64,000 nucleotides of DNA, taken from an uncultured Clostridia bacterium. Lineage in GTDB: Bacteria > Bacillota > Clostridia > Christensenellales > UBA3700. The DNA is taken from positions 6,353 to 70,352 of the forward strand of contig CAMQSU010000005.1 of assembly GCA_947037025.1 (NCBI GenBank). Direction: 5' to 3'. The notes under the pieces were generated by a model that was not told the DNA's origin, searched no databases, and saw only the letters and a list, made by a program, of their open reading frames with translations. The position numbers and the translations under genes are program-made. Below, piece after piece: positions 6,873-59,093 of the stretch (within the stretch, counting starts at the first letter, position 1; each line of letters starts with the position of its first letter).

Positions 6873-7691
6873 ATGAGCAAAATCAAATTATTAATCGTAG
6901 ATTGTGATGTTGAAAATGGTGGACGTAGTGCAAAAGAATTAAGTAGTGATTTTATTGAAGTAATCGGTATTGCTACTGATGGTCAAGAATGTCTTGAGAT
7001 GATGAAGACGCGTGATATTGATGTAATATTGACTGAGTTAGTTCTTCCAATGTATGACGGATATGCGATTCTTGAAGCTGCAGCAGCAGGCGTGGACATG
7101 CCAAAGATTCCAAAGATTTTTGTTATGTCTAAGCTTATGGGTGAGGGGTATATTAATAAGGCTATGAAATTAGGTGCTTCTTATTATTTCTTTAAGCCTT
7201 GTAATTATTCGTATGTTAGCACTATTATGAAAAATGCAATGGAAAAAGATCCGTTTGCTGAGTATTTAAATGAAGGACAAGGCGATGTAAAAGGTTCATT
7301 AGGCGTTGAGGGCATGAAGACTATGAATACTCGTAATCATCACCCAATAGAGGAGAAAATAGCTAAAATATTTATCTCTGTTGGCATACCAGCACACATA
7401 AAAGGCTATCAATTTTTGAGGTCTGCAATCAAGCTTGTAGTAGCAAAACCGGAGATGATTAACAGCATCACAAAGCAGTTATATCCTGGTGTTGCAGAAA
7501 TATATAATACTAGCGCAAGCAAAGTTGAAAGGGCAATCAGACACGCAATAGAAGTTGCTTGGAATAGAGGAAAATTAGATAATATTAACAGGCTTTTTGG
7601 CTTCAAGATTTATAGTGCAAACGAGAAACCTACTAACGGTGAGTTTATAGCATTAGTAGCGGATAAACTAATGGTAGATAGTACATATTGA
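6873..7691 (+). CDS. spo0A: sporulation master regulator Spo0A (atypical receiver domain)
   Basis: The C-terminal domain carries the Spo0A-specific blocks GIPAHIKGYQFLRSAI, SKVERAIRHAIEVAWNRG and KPTNGEFIALVADKL. The N-terminal CheY-like receiver has Glu55 at the phospho-acceptor position (see findings). Confidence 0.9.
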   Translation: MSKIKLLIVDCDVENGGRSAKELSSDFIEVIGIATDGQECLEMMKTRDIDVILTELVLPMYDGYAILEAAAAGVDMPKIPKIFVMSKLMGEGYINKAMKLGASYYFFKPCNYSYVSTIMKNAMEKDPFAEYLNEGQGDVKGSLGVEGMKTMNTRNHHPIEEKIAKIFISVGIPAHIKGYQFLRSAIKLVVAKPEMINSITKQLYPGVAEIYNTSASKVERAIRHAIEVAWNRGKLDNINRLFGFKIYSANEKPTNGEFIALVADKLMVDSTY

Positions 7692-7808
7692 CAGTGAAAA
7701 ATAATAAGTTTATCAGGAAATATAATTATATTGCAGGCTAATCGTATAATATATTGAGTAATATATCTATATTAATTAAAGTGCAAATGATAATTTTTTA
7801 TATTACAT

Positions 7809-7850
7809 AATAGCTAGCATTTAATAGTAATGCTAGCTATTTGTCTGCTT
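7809..7850 (+). terminator. terminator after spo0A
   Basis: Stem aatagctagcat (7809-7820) / atgctagctatt (7830-7841), followed by a weak T tract (tgtctgctt). Confidence 0.6.
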
Positions 7851-8056
7851 ACGATTGGAGAAAAAAAGTATTTTTTTGGCTAAACTTATTTGCAAGTTTA
7901 GCAATAGTTTGGCATTTTTTGTGATAAATTTATGATGTATATAGTGAATTGGGTAAAAATTACATGTTTTTTTTACAAATATGCTTAAACCTATTGACAT
8001 TTTCTCATAAGTATTATAATATGATTGAAAAATGAGAGTATTGGAGGGTATATTTA

Positions 8057-8641
8057 ATGCCAATTTACAGAAAGTGTCCTAGATGCGAGTTGAATTACAT
8101 TTTGCACGAAAAAGATTATTGTGATGTTTGCCTTTTGGAATTAAAGGGCGTTGATATTCACGCTGCTGATGTTGATGATTCGCTATGTCCAGGGTGTCAT
8201 GAAATTTATCTTGAACCGGGCGAAGTGATGTGTTCTGCCTGTGCGCTAAAAGCACGCGGAGCTAAAGCAAAGGCAGAAGTGGAAGAGGACGAAGTGGAGC
8301 CAGGAAGCCGCCTTGCGAATATGACTGAGGAAGAGGATTGGGATGCTGATGCAGATTCGACTTTTGATACACCATCAGTCATTGATGATACTGAATCCTT
8401 CGTTGATGACGGCGACTATGAAGACGAAGATTATGAAGACGAAGATTATGATGAAGAAGCTAATGAAATCCTTGAAGAAGGCGCAGTAGTAGAAGTCGAT
8501 GATTTTGAGGAAGTGTTACTAGGTCTTGATGACTTAGATGATGATGACTTAGACGATGATGATTTTGACGAAGATGAGCTTGAAATGGATTTAGATGATT
8601 TAGGCAGTGAGCTTGGATTAGATGAGGAAGATTACAAATAA
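8057..8641 (+). CDS. double zinc-ribbon protein with long polyacidic C-terminal tail
   Basis: The 194-aa product has two CxxC-x11-CxxC units (C7/C10/C22/C25 and C44/C47/C59/C62) followed by about 120 residues dominated by D/E. A GGAGGG RBS is present and a strong terminator lies downstream. Confidence 0.6.
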   Translation: MPIYRKCPRCELNYILHEKDYCDVCLLELKGVDIHAADVDDSLCPGCHEIYLEPGEVMCSACALKARGAKAKAEVEEDEVEPGSRLANMTEEEDWDADADSTFDTPSVIDDTESFVDDGDYEDEDYEDEDYDEEANEILEEGAVVEVDDFEEVLLGLDDLDDDDLDDDDFDEDELEMDLDDLGSELGLDEEDYK

Positions 8642-8698
8642 TCATTATTTCAAAATGCTTTAATTAATTTTAGCAAGAAGTAAAAAATAATATAACAA

Positions 8699-8738
8699 AT
8701 ACACCTAACGGCAAATTGCGTTAGGTGTATTTTTTTTA
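8699..8738 (+). terminator. rho-independent terminator
   Basis: Stem acacctaacg (8701-8710) / cgttaggtgt (8719-8728) followed by a T8 run. Confidence 0.85.
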
Positions 8739-8898
8739 AGCAGTAGACCTGCAGCGAGGAAAAAATAATATTACGTAATGCACAATCATGTAAGGATAAT
8801 ATTTTATTAATATAATATAATACATGAGTTAAGTATAATATCTATATATCTAGTTAATAATACGTTATATAGAATATTTATCTATATATGGAGGCATT

Positions 8899-9153
8899 AT
8901 GACTAAGTTAGATATCGCAAAAAAAAGAGTTGAGTTGTTACAAGGTAGATTTATCAAGTTTAAGATAAATGAGGGACGAAATAGGTTTTCGTTTTACGAA
9001 GGGAGCATTGACCAACTACACCCAAACATTTTCACGGTAAAAACTGTAATGTACGGCAATGAGAGGACATTATCCTTCACATATGTGGAAGTATTGTCAA
9101 AAATAGTAAAATTTTACCCAATCGAAGAAAAATCTCAAGACATTTTGTCATAA
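8899..9153 (+). CDS. veg: Veg family protein (DUF1021)
   Basis: The 84-aa product has the pattern L.GR.IKFKINEGRNRFSFYEGSI...P.IF.V......ER.LSFTY.E.L, which matches B. subtilis Veg as I recall it. A GGAGG RBS is present. Confidence 0.8.
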   Translation: MTKLDIAKKRVELLQGRFIKFKINEGRNRFSFYEGSIDQLHPNIFTVKTVMYGNERTLSFTYVEVLSKIVKFYPIEEKSQDILS

Positions 9154-9242
9154 TAACCTAATTCCTCTAATATATTTAAAGAGATAATGCAGGGCGGAAG
9201 GTGTTGCTAATGCTCGCACTAATATTTATTTTTGGAGGCAAG

Positions 9243-10766
9243 ATGATGGAGAATGAGTTAGATTTCTTAGAAATGAAAAATGAGTCTGTGGTAAAGTATG
9301 GTAAGACATCTGCAACTGCGCAATGTAATATTGACAGTTCAGCAAAAGGTGGTGTATCTAAGCTGCTATCGGTAACAAGTAGCGTTGCAAGTGCAAGCGT
9401 TGAGAGAGCTGGTGATGTATGCAAAGTAACAGCTACGCTAAATTGCAAGGTTATATTTGTAAACCATGATGGCGAAATGGATAGCTATGACTATTTAAGT
9501 GAGTTTTCTACAATGGTATCTGGCGATGTGAAAGTTGCAGATAGCATGGTTCAAATGTGGGCAATGTGCAATGTGCTTGATGTTGACAGTAGCGTACGAG
9601 GTGATTTGATTGCAGTGCAGTCAGTTATTAGTATTGAAGTAGTGGGCGTATGTGCTACTACTTGCAAGTGCATAGCAAATACTGATGAGGATACTCTTGT
9701 AAAGACAGAGAGCGTTCCATGTCAGCTTGCTACAATCCTTCGTGATACTTTCAGTATTGATGAGGACTATGAGAGCGGTGCGGATATTGAAAAGATTTTA
9801 TTCTTTGATTCATCATGTATCGTAACAGGCACTCAGGCAAATGAGGGCAAGGCAATGGTTAGCGGAACATTATGCTCAACAGTTGTGTACATGGCTGATG
9901 GCAAACTTTGCTCTAAATCGTTCAACATTCCATTCGCTGAGGAAATTGCAATGGCAGGAATGTGCGAGTGTGATAAGCTAGCTGTTTCCGTTATGGTGTC
10001 AGATAGCAAAATTGTTATCAGTGGAGTTGAGGGGGATAATGTATTATGTCTTCAGTTTGAGCTTGTATGTAATGGTATTTGTTACATTACAGAGTCACAA
10101 ACAGTTATTCTTGATATGTACTCACCAAACCATAAGTTAGAGATGGAGTATTGTGAGAGTAATTACAATGAGTATCTAGGACAAACATCACTATCTGATA
10201 AGATTATCGGCAGTGCGGAACTTGCAGAAGACATTGCACCAGCACATAAAATCCTTGCAACTACAATTAGTAGGCAAGTTGTCGCAAATACATATATTGA
10301 TAACGGCATGATGATGGTAGAAGGTCTGCTTGCGTGCAACGTGATTTATGAGGATGCAAACGGCGATTGCTGCTCTATCATGGTAGAGCTTCCTTACAGC
10401 TTGCAGTTTGACGGTGCAAGTTACGATGAGAGTGCTAGCTATATCTGTGAGAGCATGATTGAGCAGCTTTACTCTAAAATTAAGCGTGACCGTGAAATAG
10501 AAGTTACTGCAATGATCAGTTTATATGTAATGTGTGATAAGCCAATGACTACTAAATGCGTATGCAATTATGCTAAGGGGGAGGAGATTTGTGCGGAAGA
10601 ATATGGAATGAGCATATATCACTCTACTGAAGGCGAGAGCTTGTGGGATATTGCTAAAGTCATGAACGCGCCAATGCATGAGCTTGCAAGACAGAACGCA
10701 AACTTAGAGGACGGCTCACGTGGTCAAAATGTGGTATATTACAGACAGCTTAAAAAGTCTGTATAA
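9243..10766 (+). CDS. SPOCS (DUF3794) repeat protein with C-terminal LysM domain, SipL/SpoVID-like spore-coat morphogenetic protein
   Basis: The size and architecture resemble C. difficile SipL: repeated beta-rich Cys-containing modules and a C-terminal LysM-like block (YHSTEGESLWDIAKVMNAPMHELARQN). I moved the start to the ATG at 9243/9246, behind GGAGG (9234-9238), rather than the track start at 9201. Confidence 0.65.
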   Translation: MMENELDFLEMKNESVVKYGKTSATAQCNIDSSAKGGVSKLLSVTSSVASASVERAGDVCKVTATLNCKVIFVNHDGEMDSYDYLSEFSTMVSGDVKVADSMVQMWAMCNVLDVDSSVRGDLIAVQSVISIEVVGVCATTCKCIANTDEDTLVKTESVPCQLATILRDTFSIDEDYESGADIEKILFFDSSCIVTGTQANEGKAMVSGTLCSTVVYMADGKLCSKSFNIPFAEEIAMAGMCECDKLAVSVMVSDSKIVISGVEGDNVLCLQFELVCNGICYITESQTVILDMYSPNHKLEMEYCESNYNEYLGQTSLSDKIIGSAELAEDIAPAHKILATTISRQVVANTYIDNGMMMVEGLLACNVIYEDANGDCCSIMVELPYSLQFDGASYDESASYICESMIEQLYSKIKRDREIEVTAMISLYVMCDKPMTTKCVCNYAKGEEICAEEYGMSIYHSTEGESLWDIAKVMNAPMHELARQNANLEDGSRGQNVVYYRQLKKSV

Positions 10767-40931: not shown

Positions 40932-42545
40932 ATGTTAAGCAGAAATGTTATTGATACTTTGCTTGGTAATGTAAGTGCTGGTATAGTGGCAGTTATAGTT
41001 GTTGTGTCCGTGCTAATAGCAGTAGCTATTGCAGTAGGAGTGACTATATTTTTTATTCGTAGAAGCTATGCGCAAAAAGTCGGCAATGCGAAAGTTGCAG
41101 CAGACAAAATAGTAGAAGACGGTAAATCGGAAGCTAAAGCACTTAGAAAAGAAGCATTACAGGAAGCAAAGGAAGAACAACGCAGAATGCGTAACGAGTT
41201 TGAGAGAGAATCCAAGGAAAGGCGTGGAGAAATCCAAAAAGCGGAGGAGCGCGTTTTACAAAGAGACGAGCTACTTACAAAGAAAGAAACTTTACTCGAC
41301 AAGAAAATGGACTCATCTGATGAGTACAAAAAATCTTTAGAGGAAAAGGAAAAACTAATCGATAAACAGCAGGAAGACCTAAAAGAATCTCATAACAGAA
41401 TTTTATCTGAGCTTGAGAGAGTTGCGGGAATGTCTACTGAGCAAGCGAAAGCACAGCTTATCGAGGAGTTGCTAGTAACAGTCAGAAAAGATGCAGGCGT
41501 TATGGCTAAAGAAATTGAAAACACTGCAAAAGAAGAAGCGGAGAAAAAGGCGAAGAATATTATTGGCGCAGCAATACAGAAATGTGCAGCTGACCATGCA
41601 GCCGAGGTTACGGTATCAATCGTAACGCTTCCGAATGACGAAATGAAAGGAAGACTTATCGGTAGAGTGGGTCGAAATATCAGAGCACTTGAAAATGCTA
41701 CAGGTATCGATTTAATTATTGATGATACACCAGATATCGTTACATTGTCAGGATTTGACCCAATGCGTCGTGAGATAGCAAAGCAGACAATCGAAAGACT
41801 TGTATCAGATGGTCGTATCCACCCAGCACGTATTGAAGAAACTGTTGAGAAAGTTCGTCGTGAGTTAGATGTTCAGATAAAAGAAACTGGCGAGAATGCA
41901 GCATTTGATGCAAATGTACATGGGGTGCACCCAGAGTTACTAAAAATATTAGGTAAGTTAAAATTCCGTACAAGCTACGGACAAAATGTACTTAATCACT
42001 CACTAGAGGTATCTTACCTTGCAGGAGTAATAGCAGCGGAACTTGGTGCAGATGTTAAAGTCGCAAAACGAGCAGGACTACTTCACGATATAGGAAAAGC
42101 TGTCGATCATGAGGTCGAGGGTACACATATCCAGATCGGTGTAGACTTAGCTAAAAAGTATAAAGAAAATCGTGCAGTAATTCACGCAATCGAGGCTCAT
42201 CATAACGACGTGCAGCCTGAGACTTTAGAGGCTGTAATAGTGCAGGCAGCCGATTCTATTTCTGGTGCAAGACCAGGAGCTAGAAGAGAATCACTAGAAA
42301 ATTACGTTAAACGCTTAGAAAAATTGGAAGGTCTAGCAAACTCGTTCGCAGGAGTAGAGCAATCATATGCAATTCAAGCAGGTAGAGAGATAAGAGTAAT
42401 AGTTAAACCAGAACAGGTTGACGATGGCTCAACAATCTTCCTAGCTAAAGAAATAGCAGAAAAAGTTGAGGCGGAGCTTGAGTATCCGGGTCAAATTAAG
42501 ATTAGTGTTATCCGTGAGACACGTAGTGTTGATTACGCTAAGTAA
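40932..42545 (+). CDS. rny: ribonuclease Y
   Basis: The product has an N-terminal TM helix, a coiled-coil region, a KH domain ([11 protein letters not shown]) and an HD domain (LLHDIGKA...HH). Confidence 0.95.
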
Positions 42546-42608
42546 TAGTATTACTTAGATAATTAATTATACAAATCATGAATTTTCAATTAATTAAATA
42601 TATTAAAT

Positions 42609-42641
42609 ATAGCCGCAAGCTTACTAGCGGCTATTTTTTTA
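42609..42641 (+). terminator. rho-independent terminator after rny
   Basis: Stem atagccgc (42609-42616) / gcggctat (42627-42634) followed by a T7 run. Confidence 0.85.
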
Positions 42642-42947
42642 TGAAAATTTTATTGTAAAAATGAGGATGTAATCGGTTTTAGCAAACAATATCATATATA
42701 TGTATGGCAGTTTTAACTGCAATTTGGGGTATATTTGATGCATTCCGTGCTAGTTATTGATAAATAAAGATGAATTATTAAATGGATATGCTAAGTGTTA
42801 CCAAGTATACATGTTAACTCTTTGCAGTTGCGTGGAAGATAGTTTTGCTAATATCCCCAAATATATGTTAGTCGGCAAAGCAAAGACATTCACAAAAAGC
42901 CAGTCGCTACATATTTGCAAATAATATATGTTATTGTCGCAAAATGT

Positions 42948-43146
42948 ATATCCACTTTGTGTGCTTTATCATTCAATTGTAATCCACATGATGTGGATTA
43001 TATGCACATATAAGCAGATATTACGGCAAATTAAAGCAATTATCCACAATATGATGATATTGCAAAGAGTTATATCCACAAATTGAGGATTTTTATTTTT
43101 CTGTATTATGATGGAGTATACAGTATATCCACAATATGTGGATATA
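42948..43146. promoter_or_regulatory. cluster of DnaA-box-like sites (TTATCCACA family)
   Basis: The sites are 42948-56 atatccact, 42980-88 taatccaca, 42992-43000 tgtggatta, 43040-48 ttatccaca (a perfect match), 43072-80 atatccaca, 43125-33 atatccaca and 43137-45 tgtggatat. Two pairs form 9-3-9 palindromes. Confidence 0.6.
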
Positions 43147-43202
43147 CTTTTGCATATTGCTTAATATTAACAATATGGCGTTTTACCTGAGTGCTATATA
43201 TA

Positions 43203-43231
43203 TTGACTAATTATATTATATAGTGTATAAT
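43203..43231 (+). promoter_or_regulatory. consensus sigma-A promoter abutting the rarA start codon
   Basis: TTGACT (43203-43208), 17-nt spacer ending in TAGTG, TATAAT (43226-43231). The in-frame ATG at 43238 begins 7 nt after the -10. Confidence 0.6.
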
Positions 43232-43237
43232 TATGTC

Positions 43238-44536
43238 ATGGATGATTTATTTGATGTAATGGGCAATAGTAGTAGGCTTGCACCGCTAGCGGAGAGAATG
43301 CGACCTAATAGTATAGATGACTTTGTAGGTCAGTCGCATATAGTTGGTGTAGGCAAATTGCTTAGGCGGGCTATAGCAACTGATAGTTTGGGCAGCTGTA
43401 TTTTTTATGGTAGACCGGGATGCGGCAAAACTACACTAGCTAATATAATAGCTAATACAACGCAGTCAAGTTTTGTTAAGATAAACGCTGTATCATCAGG
43501 AGTAGCTGACGCTAAAAAGATTATAGAGGAAGCAAAAGATAGACTAAAGATGTATGGTAAAAAGACATATTTGTTACTTGACGAGTGTCACAGATGGAAT
43601 AAGGCGCAATCTGATTGTGTCCTATCTGCAATTGAGGAAGGATATATTATATTTATCGGTTCAACAACGGAGAACCCTTTTATTTCTATGACAAAAGCGA
43701 TAGTATCAAGGTGTAGAATATTCGAGTTCAAAAATCTAGGTGATGAGGATATCCGCATAGCACTTGATCGTGCACTTGCCGACAACAAAAACGGATTAGG
43801 CAATTACGATGTTCAGATAGATGATAAGGCGATGTCGCACTTTATATGGGCAGCTGATGGCGACCTTAGGACGGCATATAATGCACTTGAGCTTGCAGTA
43901 TTATCAACAAAGCCAAACCAAGACGGATTAATTCATGTGACAACGTTAATTTCGGAGGAGTCTATTCAAAAGAAGTCTCTATCAATTGACGAGTCAATGT
44001 ATTACGATATGCTAAGTGCTTTTTGCAAAAGCCTAAGGGGTAGCGACTCTGACGGCGCGCTTTATTGGTCAACAAGGTTGATTGATGCGGGCTGTGACCC
44101 AATGCTAATATGTCGCAGGCTGTTAGTTCATAGTGCAGAAGATGTAGGCATGGCTGACCCAAATGCACAATTAATGGCAACTTCTGCGATGTTTGCAATG
44201 AAGAATATAGGAATGCCAGAAGGTAGAATCCCTCTTGCAAATTCAATAATTTATGTATGCGAAGCTAGCAAATCTAACAGTGTATACATGGCAATATCTG
44301 CAGCACAAGAAGCGGTTAGTAATGTTAAAGATGATGTTGTGCCGTTGCACCTTCGTGATGTAAATTACAAGGTGGAGCAAGTTAAAGGATACAAATATCC
44401 ACATGACTTTGGCGGATATGTTGTGCAAGATTATTTGCCTGATAAGCTAAATGGAGTGACGTTTTACAAACCATTAAACAATGGATATGAGAGTAAATTA
44501 ATTAGAGCAAAAGAAATAAAAGCAAACAAAGGCTAA
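43238..44536 (+). CDS. rarA: replication-associated recombination protein A (RarA/MgsA AAA+ ATPase)
   Basis: LAERMRP...DDFVGQ.H, Walker A GRPGCGKTTLA, LLDECHRWNK and C-terminal blocks GSDSDGALYW, VGMADP and YKYPHD are present. I set the start at the ATG at 43238 rather than the GTG at 43223. Confidence 0.9.
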   Translation: MDDLFDVMGNSSRLAPLAERMRPNSIDDFVGQSHIVGVGKLLRRAIATDSLGSCIFYGRPGCGKTTLANIIANTTQSSFVKINAVSSGVADAKKIIEEAKDRLKMYGKKTYLLLDECHRWNKAQSDCVLSAIEEGYIIFIGSTTENPFISMTKAIVSRCRIFEFKNLGDEDIRIALDRALADNKNGLGNYDVQIDDKAMSHFIWAADGDLRTAYNALELAVLSTKPNQDGLIHVTTLISEESIQKKSLSIDESMYYDMLSAFCKSLRGSDSDGALYWSTRLIDAGCDPMLICRRLLVHSAEDVGMADPNAQLMATSAMFAMKNIGMPEGRIPLANSIIYVCEASKSNSVYMAISAAQEAVSNVKDDVVPLHLRDVNYKVEQVKGYKYPHDFGGYVVQDYLPDKLNGVTFYKPLNNGYESKLIRAKEIKANKG

Positions 44537-48581: not shown

Positions 48582-49517
48582 ATGTCTAAAAAGAATAATT
48601 ATGAAGAAAAAGATGTAAAAGCAAAAATTGATTCATTTATGCCAGATAAGGCAACTGATGATCCAAAGCAGATACTTAAAAGTGACAAAAAGATATTTAG
48701 TTCAGTATTTATTTCGATAATAACATTAATGATTATCGGGTGGTTTATCAGCGTCATAATCGGGTTTGTAGAAGGCCCTGTGGAGGGTGTGAGAGCGCTC
48801 TTTATTGGAAGTATAGCAACAAGCGTAATATTGTTGCTAACAACGTTAATTATATCAATGGCGCACAATATGTCAAGAACTACAAAAGCGACGATGATAA
48901 TGTGTCAAAAGATATTAGAGTATGAGGAAGAAGATAAAAAGAAGTTAAGTGAAAATGCTGATATAAATAATGCTAGCGAAGTAATGAGTAACGCATCAAA
49001 TTCACCAATAAATAAAGTTATTAATGCAAGCAATAATAACTTGCAAAACCAAAATAATACAATGTCAAATAATGCAAATCAACAAATGGATAATAATCAA
49101 AATATGAATAATAACCAAAACAACACAATGTCAAATAATGCAAATCAACAAATGGATAATAACCAAAACATGAATAATAATCAAAACAACACAAGTCAAA
49201 ATTTCGACAACCAAAGCTATCAAAACCCAGCAAGCGAAAATTTTGAAAATGGAAATATGACAAATGAAAACAACAACAATTTGCCGGAAAATTATATAAA
49301 TGAAAATAACGTTAATAATAGTTATAGTAGTCAAAATCAGGGCGAAGATTGTAACAATTATGATCAAAATTATAACTATTCAGATTATAATCAAGGGGAG
49401 TATCGTGGCGATTACAATGGCTATGAGCAAGCTAGCGGCGAGCAGTATAATAATGAGCATCAAGAAGAAAACGGCAATAATTATAGAGTAAACAATAATA
49501 ATCAAGAAAGAAACTAA
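48582..49517 (+). CDS. membrane protein with long Asn/Gln-rich low-complexity C-terminal domain
   Basis: A GGAGG RBS is present. The product has two hydrophobic helices (IFSSVFISIITLMIIGWFISVIIGFV and ALFIGSIATSVILLLTTLIISMA) followed by about 190 residues dominated by N and Q. Confidence 0.6.
   Translation: MSKKNNYEEKDVKAKIDSFMPDKATDDPKQILKSDKKIFSSVFISIITLMIIGWFISVIIGFVEGPVEGVRALFIGSIATSVILLLTTLIISMAHNMSRTTKATMIMCQKILEYEEEDKKKLSENADINNASEVMSNASNSPINKVINASNNNLQNQNNTMSNNANQQMDNNQNMNNNQNNTMSNNANQQMDNNQNMNNNQNNTSQNFDNQSYQNPASENFENGNMTNENNNNLPENYINENNVNNSYSSQNQGEDCNNYDQNYNYSDYNQGEYRGDYNGYEQASGEQYNNEHQEENGNNYRVNNNNQERN
49059..49202 (+). repeat. 66-bp tandem repeat (two full units plus a partial third)
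   Basis: Units start at 49059 and 49125 (acaatgtcaaataatgcaaatcaacaaatggataataa...), each encoding TMSNNANQQMDNNQNMNNNQNN. A partial third copy starts at 49191. Confidence 0.85.
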
Positions 49518-57734: not shown

Positions 57735-57838
57735 AAATCTATTGTGAGTTACAGGAGGGATCGGACCCGTTAATTGTACAGCAACCGACTTTGTGAGGTG
57801 CTAATTTCCGCAAGATTAAATCTTGGAAGATAGAGTGA
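57735..57838 (+). promoter_or_regulatory. SAM-I (S-box) riboswitch aptamer
   Basis: The conserved S-box blocks are present in order: TCTAT..GAG...GGAGGGA.CGGACCCG.....CAGCAACC......GGTGCTAATTTCCGCA......GAAGATAGA. The aptamer lies upstream of metK. Confidence 0.85.
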
Positions 57839-57914: not shown

Positions 57915-59093
57915 ATGAATAGAAGATTTTTTACAAGTGAGAGTGTTACGGAAGGACACCCAGATAAATTATGTGATAAAGTATCAGATAGCGTATTAGA
58001 TGCAATCTATGCGCAAGATAAAATGGCGAGGGTTGCGTGCGAAACTTGCTGCAACACAGGCTTTGTAATGGTAATGGGCGAAATATCAACTACAGCAGTA
58101 GTGGATATTGCCGATGTAGTTAGAAAAGCTGTATGTGATATCGGATATGACAATAGCGAAGTAGGATTTAACGGCAACACATGCGCCGTTATGCTTAGCA
58201 TTGATAAGCAATCTCCTGATATCGCACTAGGTGTAGATAACAGTGTTGAGGTTAGAGATGGCGGGGATAAAAATGATCAAAACGGTGCAGGCGATCAAGG
58301 AATGATGTTTGGTTATGCAACTAACGAAACAGATTCACTAATGCCAATGCCAATTTATCTAGCGCACAAATTATCTGCAAAACTAACTGAAGTTAGAAAG
58401 TCAAAGCAGTTAACATACTTGCGTCCTGATGGCAAAACTCAAGTTACTATTGAGTATATTGATGACAAACCAAGCAGAGTTGATGCGGTAGTAGTATCTA
58501 CTCAGCACAGCGAGGATGTCGATTTAGAAACTATCAGACGCGACATTAAAGAGCATGTAATTATGCAGGTTATACCAGCTAATTTGATTGATGAAAATAC
58601 TAAATTCTACATTAATCCTACTGGCAGATTCGTCGTTGGCGGGCCTGCTGGCGATAGCGGTCTTACTGGACGAAAGATTATTGTTGATACTTACGGCGGA
58701 TATTGCCCTCATGGCGGTGGAGCGTTTAGCGGAAAAGACCCAACAAAAGTTGATAGGTCAGCTGCGTACATGGCAAGACACGTTTGCAAAAATATCGTAG
58801 CAAGTGGCATTGCTGATAAATGTCAGCTTGATATTGCATATGCAATCGGAGTTGCAAAACCTGTATCAGTTCAAGTAAATACTTTTGGAACAAGCAAGTA
58901 CAATAATGAGCAAATTCAATTTATTATTGACAAGGTTTTTGACCTTCGCCCATCTGCGCTAATTGAATATCTAGGACTTAGAGCTCCGGTATATGCAAAA
59001 ACATCTAATTACGGACATTTTGGCCGTGATGGATTTAGCTGGGAAGCGACAAATAAAGCAAAAGAAATCGCACAAATTGCGAAAACACTTTAA
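57915..59093 (+). CDS. metK: S-adenosylmethionine synthetase
   Basis: [46 protein letters not shown] and [16 protein letters not shown] are all present. Confidence 0.96.

Follow-up and report, generated by a model that had tools for sequence, protein, structure and literature searches.

The spacer between rny and rarA in an uncultured clostridial genome carries a cluster of predicted DnaA boxes, arranged as five pairs in a 200-bp stretch (42948-43146). All positions are those of the window, that is, the whole 64-kb stretch of DNA that was analysed. We think it likely that this is a lineage-specific secondary DnaA-box cluster (DBC) outside oriC, of the same kind as the six extra DBCs of B. subtilis. 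An initial annotation of this DNA had compared it with the non-oriC clusters of B. subtilis, and that comparison is supported by the box consensus, by the non-origin site, by a footprint in close relatives and by the same pairs at sua5/ywlC loci. Judged by its RarA, the source organism is an uncultured Christensenellales-like member of the Clostridia.

Box content and statistics

A rescan of the sequence returned all seven box-like sites listed in the initial annotation, one perfect, five with one mismatch and one weaker. The perfect box TTATCCACA is at 43040-43048, the one-mismatch boxes are at 42980 (+), 42992 (-), 43072 (+), 43125 (+) and 43137 (-), and the two-mismatch box ATATCCACT is at 42948-42956. 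Six boxes with at most one mismatch fall inside 166 bp, and the ATCCACA core was again found six times in 162 bp (42982 to 43143).

The density was compared with 400 third-order Markov simulations of the window, in each of which the densest 200-bp cluster was scored. The simulated maximum was four boxes per 200 bp, reached in one of the 400 runs, against six in the window. The perfect 17-nt sequence ATCCACA-N3-TGTGGAT occurs twice in the window and was absent from all 400 simulations, and a Poisson estimate from the background rate gave about 2e-6 window-wide. The cluster is real and lies far above chance expectation. Like a DBC, it consists of several consensus or near-consensus boxes, is intergenic and exceeds chance. 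In the rest of the window there are 36 DnaA-box-like 9-mers with at most one mismatch, where shuffles predict about 20-23; roughly two thirds of the 36 are on the - strand, i.e. TGTGGATAA-like on the leading strand.

Paired arrangement of the boxes

The initial annotation had described two 9-3-9 palindromes, at 42980-43000 and 43125-43145, together with three single boxes. Both palindromes are present in the sequence, but the boxes are not single. When the 17-nt core palindrome was scanned with mismatches permitted, each of the three was seen to have a degenerate partner at the identical 3-bp spacing. The repeated unit is a 21-bp head-to-head DnaA-box pair (9-3-9) in five copies (Table 1), and a repeat finder independently returned a unit of 17-23 nt in four to five copies. 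The centre-to-centre distances of the pairs are 32, 60, 32 and 53 bp, three of the four being near whole helical turns. The palindrome of pair 5 extends to 12-3-12 (43122-43148). A possible tandem third box follows this pair; its equivalent is perfect in two related genomes (L321 and L322, see below), and the evidence for it within the window is weak.

Table 1. Coordinates of features in the rny-rarA region of the window.
Feature	Position	Strand	Description
rny (RNase Y), upstream neighbour	40932-42545	+	Pfam RNase_Y_N, KH and HD domains
Probable rny intrinsic terminator	42605-42641	+	inverted repeat; stem TAGCCGC/GCGGCTA, then T7 run
Box pair 1 (weak)	42948-42968	.	ATATCCACT-ttg-TGTGCTTTA; 2 + 3 mismatches
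Box pair 2	42980-43000	.	TAATCCACA-tga-TGTGGATTA; 1 + 1 mismatch; perfect 17-nt core palindrome
Box pair 3	43040-43060	.	TTATCCACA (perfect)-ata-TGATGATAT (3 mismatches)
Box pair 4	43072-43092	.	ATATCCACA-aat-TGAGGATTT; 1 + 3 mismatches
Box pair 5	43125-43145	.	ATATCCACA-ata-TGTGGATAT; 1 + 1 mismatch
Possible weak tandem third box	43149-43157	-	TTTGCATAT; 3 mismatches; 3 bp past pair 5
rarA promoter	43203-43231	+	TTGACT, 17-bp spacer, TATAAT; score 11/12
rarA/mgsA (AAA+ replication-associated recombination protein A)	43238-44536	+	Pfam MgsA_C, AAA_assoc_2 and AAA

The half-sites as DnaA boxes

The majority consensus of 27 half-sites from four genomes (the window, L001, L321 and L322) is exactly TTATCCACA, with positions 3-9 kept in 23-27 of the 27. 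By this consensus the half-sites are DnaA boxes. A metagenome pattern (ATCCACA-N3-TGTGGAT, then ATCCAC 20-50 nt on), which demands three box cores, hence enriches box-dense DNA and therefore shows the architecture at DnaA targets rather than exclusivity to DnaA, matched at least 120 loci. Among the matches listed, 65 encode DnaA and 6 more YidC only, as confirmed with Pfam, and the palindrome is usually 100-700 bp upstream of the dnaA start. Locus L319 has four 9-3-9 pairs between dnaA and yidC. Gaps of 3 bp were in excess beyond the seeded pairs at the oriC loci, although this is indicative only (70 loci, reduced to 9 by an overly strict dereplication). As read from these matches, Firmicute dnaA-upstream regions commonly include the 9-3-9 pair as a building block.

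At no fewer than four of the listed metagenome loci the 9-3-9 pair adjoins sua5/ywlC. In B. subtilis, sua5/ywlC is among the six non-oriC DBCs and is both bound and repressed by DnaA (PMC3245932). Four loci of 38-46% GC (L228:8113, L250:1119, L256:1427 and L307:6359) have 10-14 boxes per 900 bp at the sua5/ywlC 5' end, 9-3-9 pairs included.

Other pairs were seen in further settings. In an organism of 57% GC (L209:7122 and L282:2876), a perfect 9-3-9 pair with about seven boxes near it lies 60-80 bp 5' of a recQ-family helicase gene, near a parB-like gene; the recQ-family gene is a further DNA-repair gene preceded by DnaA boxes. Two perfect ATCCACA-N3-TGTGGAT sequences 31 bp apart occur in L280 (3696-3743) and L315 (3375-3422), on contigs encoding a DUF4055 protein, apparently a mobile-element setting. 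At a contig end in L304 (12340-12691), beside ABC-transporter-like genes, about nine tandem 40-bp units carry AATCCAC-N5-GTGGATT. This array looks iteron- or centromere-like and is an instance of a similar palindromic core outside the setting of DnaA boxes.

The 21-bp inverted repeats might instead be operators of another dimeric protein that recognises a half-site similar to a DnaA box by coincidence; HTH repressors and partition-type proteins are examples. We regard such an operator array as unlikely. Each of the five sites in the window is an inverted repeat with its spacer fixed at 3 bp, an arrangement classically seen with dimeric regulators; several operators of 17-21 bp per 200 bp recall phage-type operator arrays, and the L304 array, at an unrelated locus, suggests that other proteins may use a similar core. 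However, the half-site consensus is the exact 9-mer DnaA box, A/T-rich positions 1-2 included. The perfect tandem third box, 3 bp away in L321 and L322, is needless for a symmetric dimer and therefore fits monomeric 9-mer recognition better. The sites leave the rarA core promoter free and do not overlap it, no regulator or transcription-factor gene is adjacent, and the 9-3-9 pair is abundant in true dnaA-upstream regions. On viral contigs ATCCACA-N3-TGTGGAT gave 120 scattered singleton matches without clustering, taken as background. The right half-sites (TGTGGA/TGAGGA/TGATGA) are without the CGAA core of the Spo0A box TGTCGAA. Compared with their consensus sites, Spo0A, NrdR, LexA and parS were rejected as binding systems on half-site sequence or spacing. 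Identification of the sites as a DnaA-box cluster is thus favoured over another dimeric regulator by the half-site consensus, the tandem third box and the dnaA and sua5 loci.

Genomic context

The gene order around the cluster is a rimO-like gene, pgsA, cinA, recA and rny on the left, and rarA, two ABC-transporter genes, ruvX and a DUF1292 gene on the right, continuing with rpoB, rpoC, SAM riboswitch-metK, recD2 and comF. Farther upstream in the window are secDF, recJ, relA, pnp and ftsK, and the 10 kb past the right window end contain secA, prfB, tsaD, rpsL, rpsG, fusA and tuf. To the left, the scaffold breaks off some 6 kb before the window begins, and no dnaA was encountered between that end and the 10 kb on the right. 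Downstream of the cluster, at 7-35 kb, are rpoBC and the str operon. Between the DUF1292 gene and rpoB there is a 311-aa ORF (48582-49517) without a Pfam match at E <= 1e-5. The region 6873-10766 holds spo0A (Response_reg + Spo0A_C), veg and a SipL-domain gene, which suggests sporulation capacity in the Christensenellales-like host.

The window has a GC content of 36% and a GC skew that stays between +0.09 and +0.28 in all 2-kb bins; the large ORFs, with few exceptions, read along the + strand. A search of every reading frame of the window turned up no homologue of DnaA or DnaN, and a crude test (at least 4 of 5 consecutive TAR trinucleotides) turned up no DnaA-trio array in the spacer or beside any box. 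Because the skew is positive throughout, nearly all genes are on the + strand and dnaA and dnaN are missing, the cluster locus is an ordinary chromosomal region and not a replication origin. The ORF list and the all-frame homology search agree with the earlier statement that genes on both sides are on the + strand with no dnaA or dnaN nearby, and the GC skew and the missing DnaA-trio agree with the placement of the cluster away from oriC.

A functional or cryptic origin at this place is therefore exceedingly improbable. It would be suggested only by dense boxes in AT-rich intergenic DNA, whereas within the 64-kb window the skew does not change sign, both flanks of the cluster are co-oriented rather than divergent, and neither dnaA/dnaN nor a trio/DUE module accompanies the boxes. 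The cluster shares with Firmicute dnaA-upstream (oriC) arrays the same 9-3-9 pairs, often several per region (four in L319), but differs from them by being without dnaA/dnaN, skew switch and unwinding module. Like a DBC it lies outside the replication origin, with housekeeping genes in its flanks. An oriC-proximal position is typical of B. subtilis DBCs and is not obligatory, sda being an exception; here the downstream rpoBC and str operon are no more than suggestive of such a position.

The rny-rarA spacer and the rarA promoter

The spacer (42546-43237) is 692 bp long with 28% GC and contains no credible ORF. A hairpin and T-run similar to the terminator in Table 1, which was missed by a consensus scanner in the window, follow rny in L001 and L321. 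Rfam, at the gathering threshold, gave only a SAM riboswitch for the whole window; by E-value, the spacer gave only two meaningless miRNA matches (E about 1) and no known RNA. The SAM (S-box) riboswitch is at 57736-57836 (57.5 bits), 5' of metK (57915-59093). Another relative, L323, has small ORFs between rny and rarA; the window spacer was considered as a decayed copy of these, and tblastn found nothing.

The rarA start is ATG 43238, from which relatives align (MDDLFDV), and not GTG 43223 of the ORF lister. Pair 5 ends 57 bp upstream of the -35 hexamer TTGACT (43203), exactly the distance given in the initial annotation. The -10 hexamer ends 6 nt before the ATG and a Shine-Dalgarno sequence is absent; the rarA mRNA is therefore probably leaderless. 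The gap of 6 nt (occasionally 7-9) without Shine-Dalgarno sequence was seen in the window and in all three close relatives. A strict automatic test for the leaderless layout was positive for 40 loci out of 76; on visual inspection, most of the other Christensenellales loci share it. From these sequences a leaderless rarA mRNA appears conserved across this order.

Conservation in relatives

We surveyed 80 species-representative genomes with RarA 62-84% identical to that of the window, and only the closest, L001 (RarA 84%), had the cluster 5' of rarA. Additional close relatives (L321, L322, L323 and L324) were drawn from the protein database. The 9-3-9 pairs were also found in the rny-rarA spacers of L321 (RarA 85%) and L322 (82%), and no cluster was found in the spacers of L323 (77%) and L324 (78%). 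The upstream gene is likewise rny in L001, L321 and L323; the L322 contig begins inside the spacer, with rny itself outside the sequence. At RarA identities of 78% or less the cluster is absent (about 80 more distant Christensenellales loci), and it is therefore not an ancient feature of rarA regulation. Conservation upstream of rarA thus holds for the three closest relatives (RarA 82-85%) and fails for more distant ones.

The four spacers cannot be aligned with each other, and the only blocks returned by an all-versus-all short-word BLAST were the box pairs and the rarA promoter/start. A near-perfect pair is retained at least once in each of the four genomes. Counted from the rarA ATG, the boxes span -288 to -95 (window), about -520 to -355 (L001), -335 to -210 (L321) and -610 to -440 (L322). 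The box-to-promoter distance varies among the four genomes between about 60 and about 440 bp, and in the relatives the nearest box is about 190 to 390 bp upstream of the -35. As judged from these alignments, there is a clear phylogenetic footprint, confined to a genus-level clade.

In about 1.05 Mb of related Christensenellales DNA these four were the only comparably dense intergenic clusters. L006, L007 and L071 were tried as further clusters and rejected, having scattered one-mismatch boxes partly or wholly inside ORFs (in L007, inside rarA and just upstream); the other matches with 3-4 boxes were also partly or wholly within ORFs. The L322 spacer has lineage-specific tandem repeats at 30-170 and 480-520 that are absent from the window, namely three copies of about 50-60 bp (ttaatttcaatcaaggacgtgtttgg...) and a 3x 'aatacctagata' run.

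The restricted distribution could also be that of a neutral or decaying remnant, left by an old origin, a mobile element or runaway local duplication. The cluster is found in one shallow clade only, several right half-sites are degenerate, and the spacer is long, AT-rich and fast-evolving. Against this, the boxes are, besides the promoter, the sole surviving blocks in four otherwise unalignable spacers, remnants of the L323 small ORFs are absent, and there are no mobile-element genes. We consider a remnant highly improbable.

Comparison with DARS and datA

The E. coli DARS1 core, read from MG1655 (NC_000913), is TTATCCACt-N5-TGTGGATAA-N3-TGTGtATtA, in which boxes I and II face each other and box III stands in tandem with II. 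The whole layout, a convergent I/II pair and a tandem III with a 3-bp spacer, is present in L321 (TTATCCACA-att-TGTGGATAA-gtc-TGTGGATAA) and in L322 (TTTTCCACA-ata-TGTGGAAAA-cta-TGTGGATAA). In DARS the head-to-head I/II pair drives ADP dissociation (PMC6868365), and DARS1 too is upstream of a DNA-repair gene, uvrB. The cluster could then go beyond titration, with head-to-head DnaA on paired boxes promoting ADP release and regenerating ATP-DnaA; it would be a Gram-positive functional analogue of DARS that recharges DnaA beside rarA and may co-regulate it. We consider this very unlikely, both as a mechanism and as a description of the locus. Boxes I and II are 3 bp apart in all pairs, whereas DARS has 5 bp between them (PMC6868365); L001 has no third box, and that of the window is weak (3 mismatches); and the cluster has five pairs where DARS1/DARS2 have one core. 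The tandem triple (pair plus third box) also occurs at 4 ordinary dnaA-upstream loci and 5 loci elsewhere, and the geometry is therefore not diagnostic of DARS. No DARS is known in Firmicutes; according to a recent review, datA and DARS are absent from B. subtilis, and whether B. subtilis has a regulator that interconverts DnaA nucleotide states is unknown (PMC13220808). If true, the DARS-like reading would answer whether Firmicutes own a cis element with this activity.

The cluster also resembles E. coli datA, which has about five DnaA boxes outside oriC, binds DnaA and lowers initiation potential. Unlike the cluster, datA has another box arrangement and uses IHF-dependent ATP hydrolysis, and IHF is not known in Firmicutes (PMC13220808).

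Likely function of the cluster

The preferred reading, a secondary DnaA-box cluster, agrees with the B. subtilis DBCs in being an intergenic cluster of consensus or near-consensus boxes outside oriC, in a Firmicute, adjoining a promoter. Its placement is lineage-specific like theirs, and its 9-3-9 pair recurs at the sua5/ywlC loci recovered from metagenomes. It differs in that it is made entirely of head-to-head pairs, and in its neighbour. The initial annotation had not counted rarA among the described DnaA regulon, and the literature searched likewise gives no report of rarA (yrvN, mgsA) in a DnaA regulon or as a known target.

DnaA would bind the five head-to-head pairs cooperatively, with at most about 10 protomers per locus copy. 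The first-ranked consequence would be a DnaA sink or regulatory platform that sets the amount of free active initiator reaching oriC. Titration of this kind has been demonstrated with the DBCs of B. subtilis and with E. coli datA. The second-ranked consequence would be that the cluster modulates the neighbouring rarA promoter, a strong and probably leaderless one, and so ties the expression of a fork-rescue factor to the state of DnaA. Binding of DnaA in vivo, titration and control of rarA are all inferred from the sequence, and we take titration to be more likely than tight control of rarA. The variable box-promoter distance in the four genomes weakens the case for direct control at the rarA promoter; it argues against a classical promoter-proximal operator, but not against an extended DnaA oligomer that activates or represses. 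Since the promoter lies immediately before the start codon, transcription initiation is where an effect on rarA would have to act.

In B. subtilis, deletion of all six DBCs leads to early initiation, and one re-inserted DBC suppresses it (PMC3245932). Okumura et al. found that DBCs lie upstream of different genes across Bacillus species and restrain initiation (PMC3245932). As placement differs among Bacillus species, a lineage-specific cluster at a new gene is expected for this class.

Significance

Secondary DnaA-box clusters help to control initiation in bacteria without SeqA, Hda, datA or DARS, and they also let DnaA report replication status as a transcription factor. To our knowledge, almost all that is known of them comes from B. 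subtilis. The rny-rarA locus adds an example with a clean footprint, from a gut lineage of uncultured, Christensenellales-like Clostridia, a possible new DnaA target in rarA, a modulator of replication restart and recombination, and a cluster made entirely of 9-3-9 head-to-head pairs. The class is known; the cluster is new as a lineage-specific case, and what is notable is its all-paired architecture and its new neighbour gene. DnaA AAA+ filaments are normally head-to-tail, and the frequent use of the 9-3-9 pair upstream of dnaA in Firmicutes therefore merits structural and biochemical attention. If DnaA controls rarA, there would be a direct link between the state of the initiator and the capacity for fork rescue.
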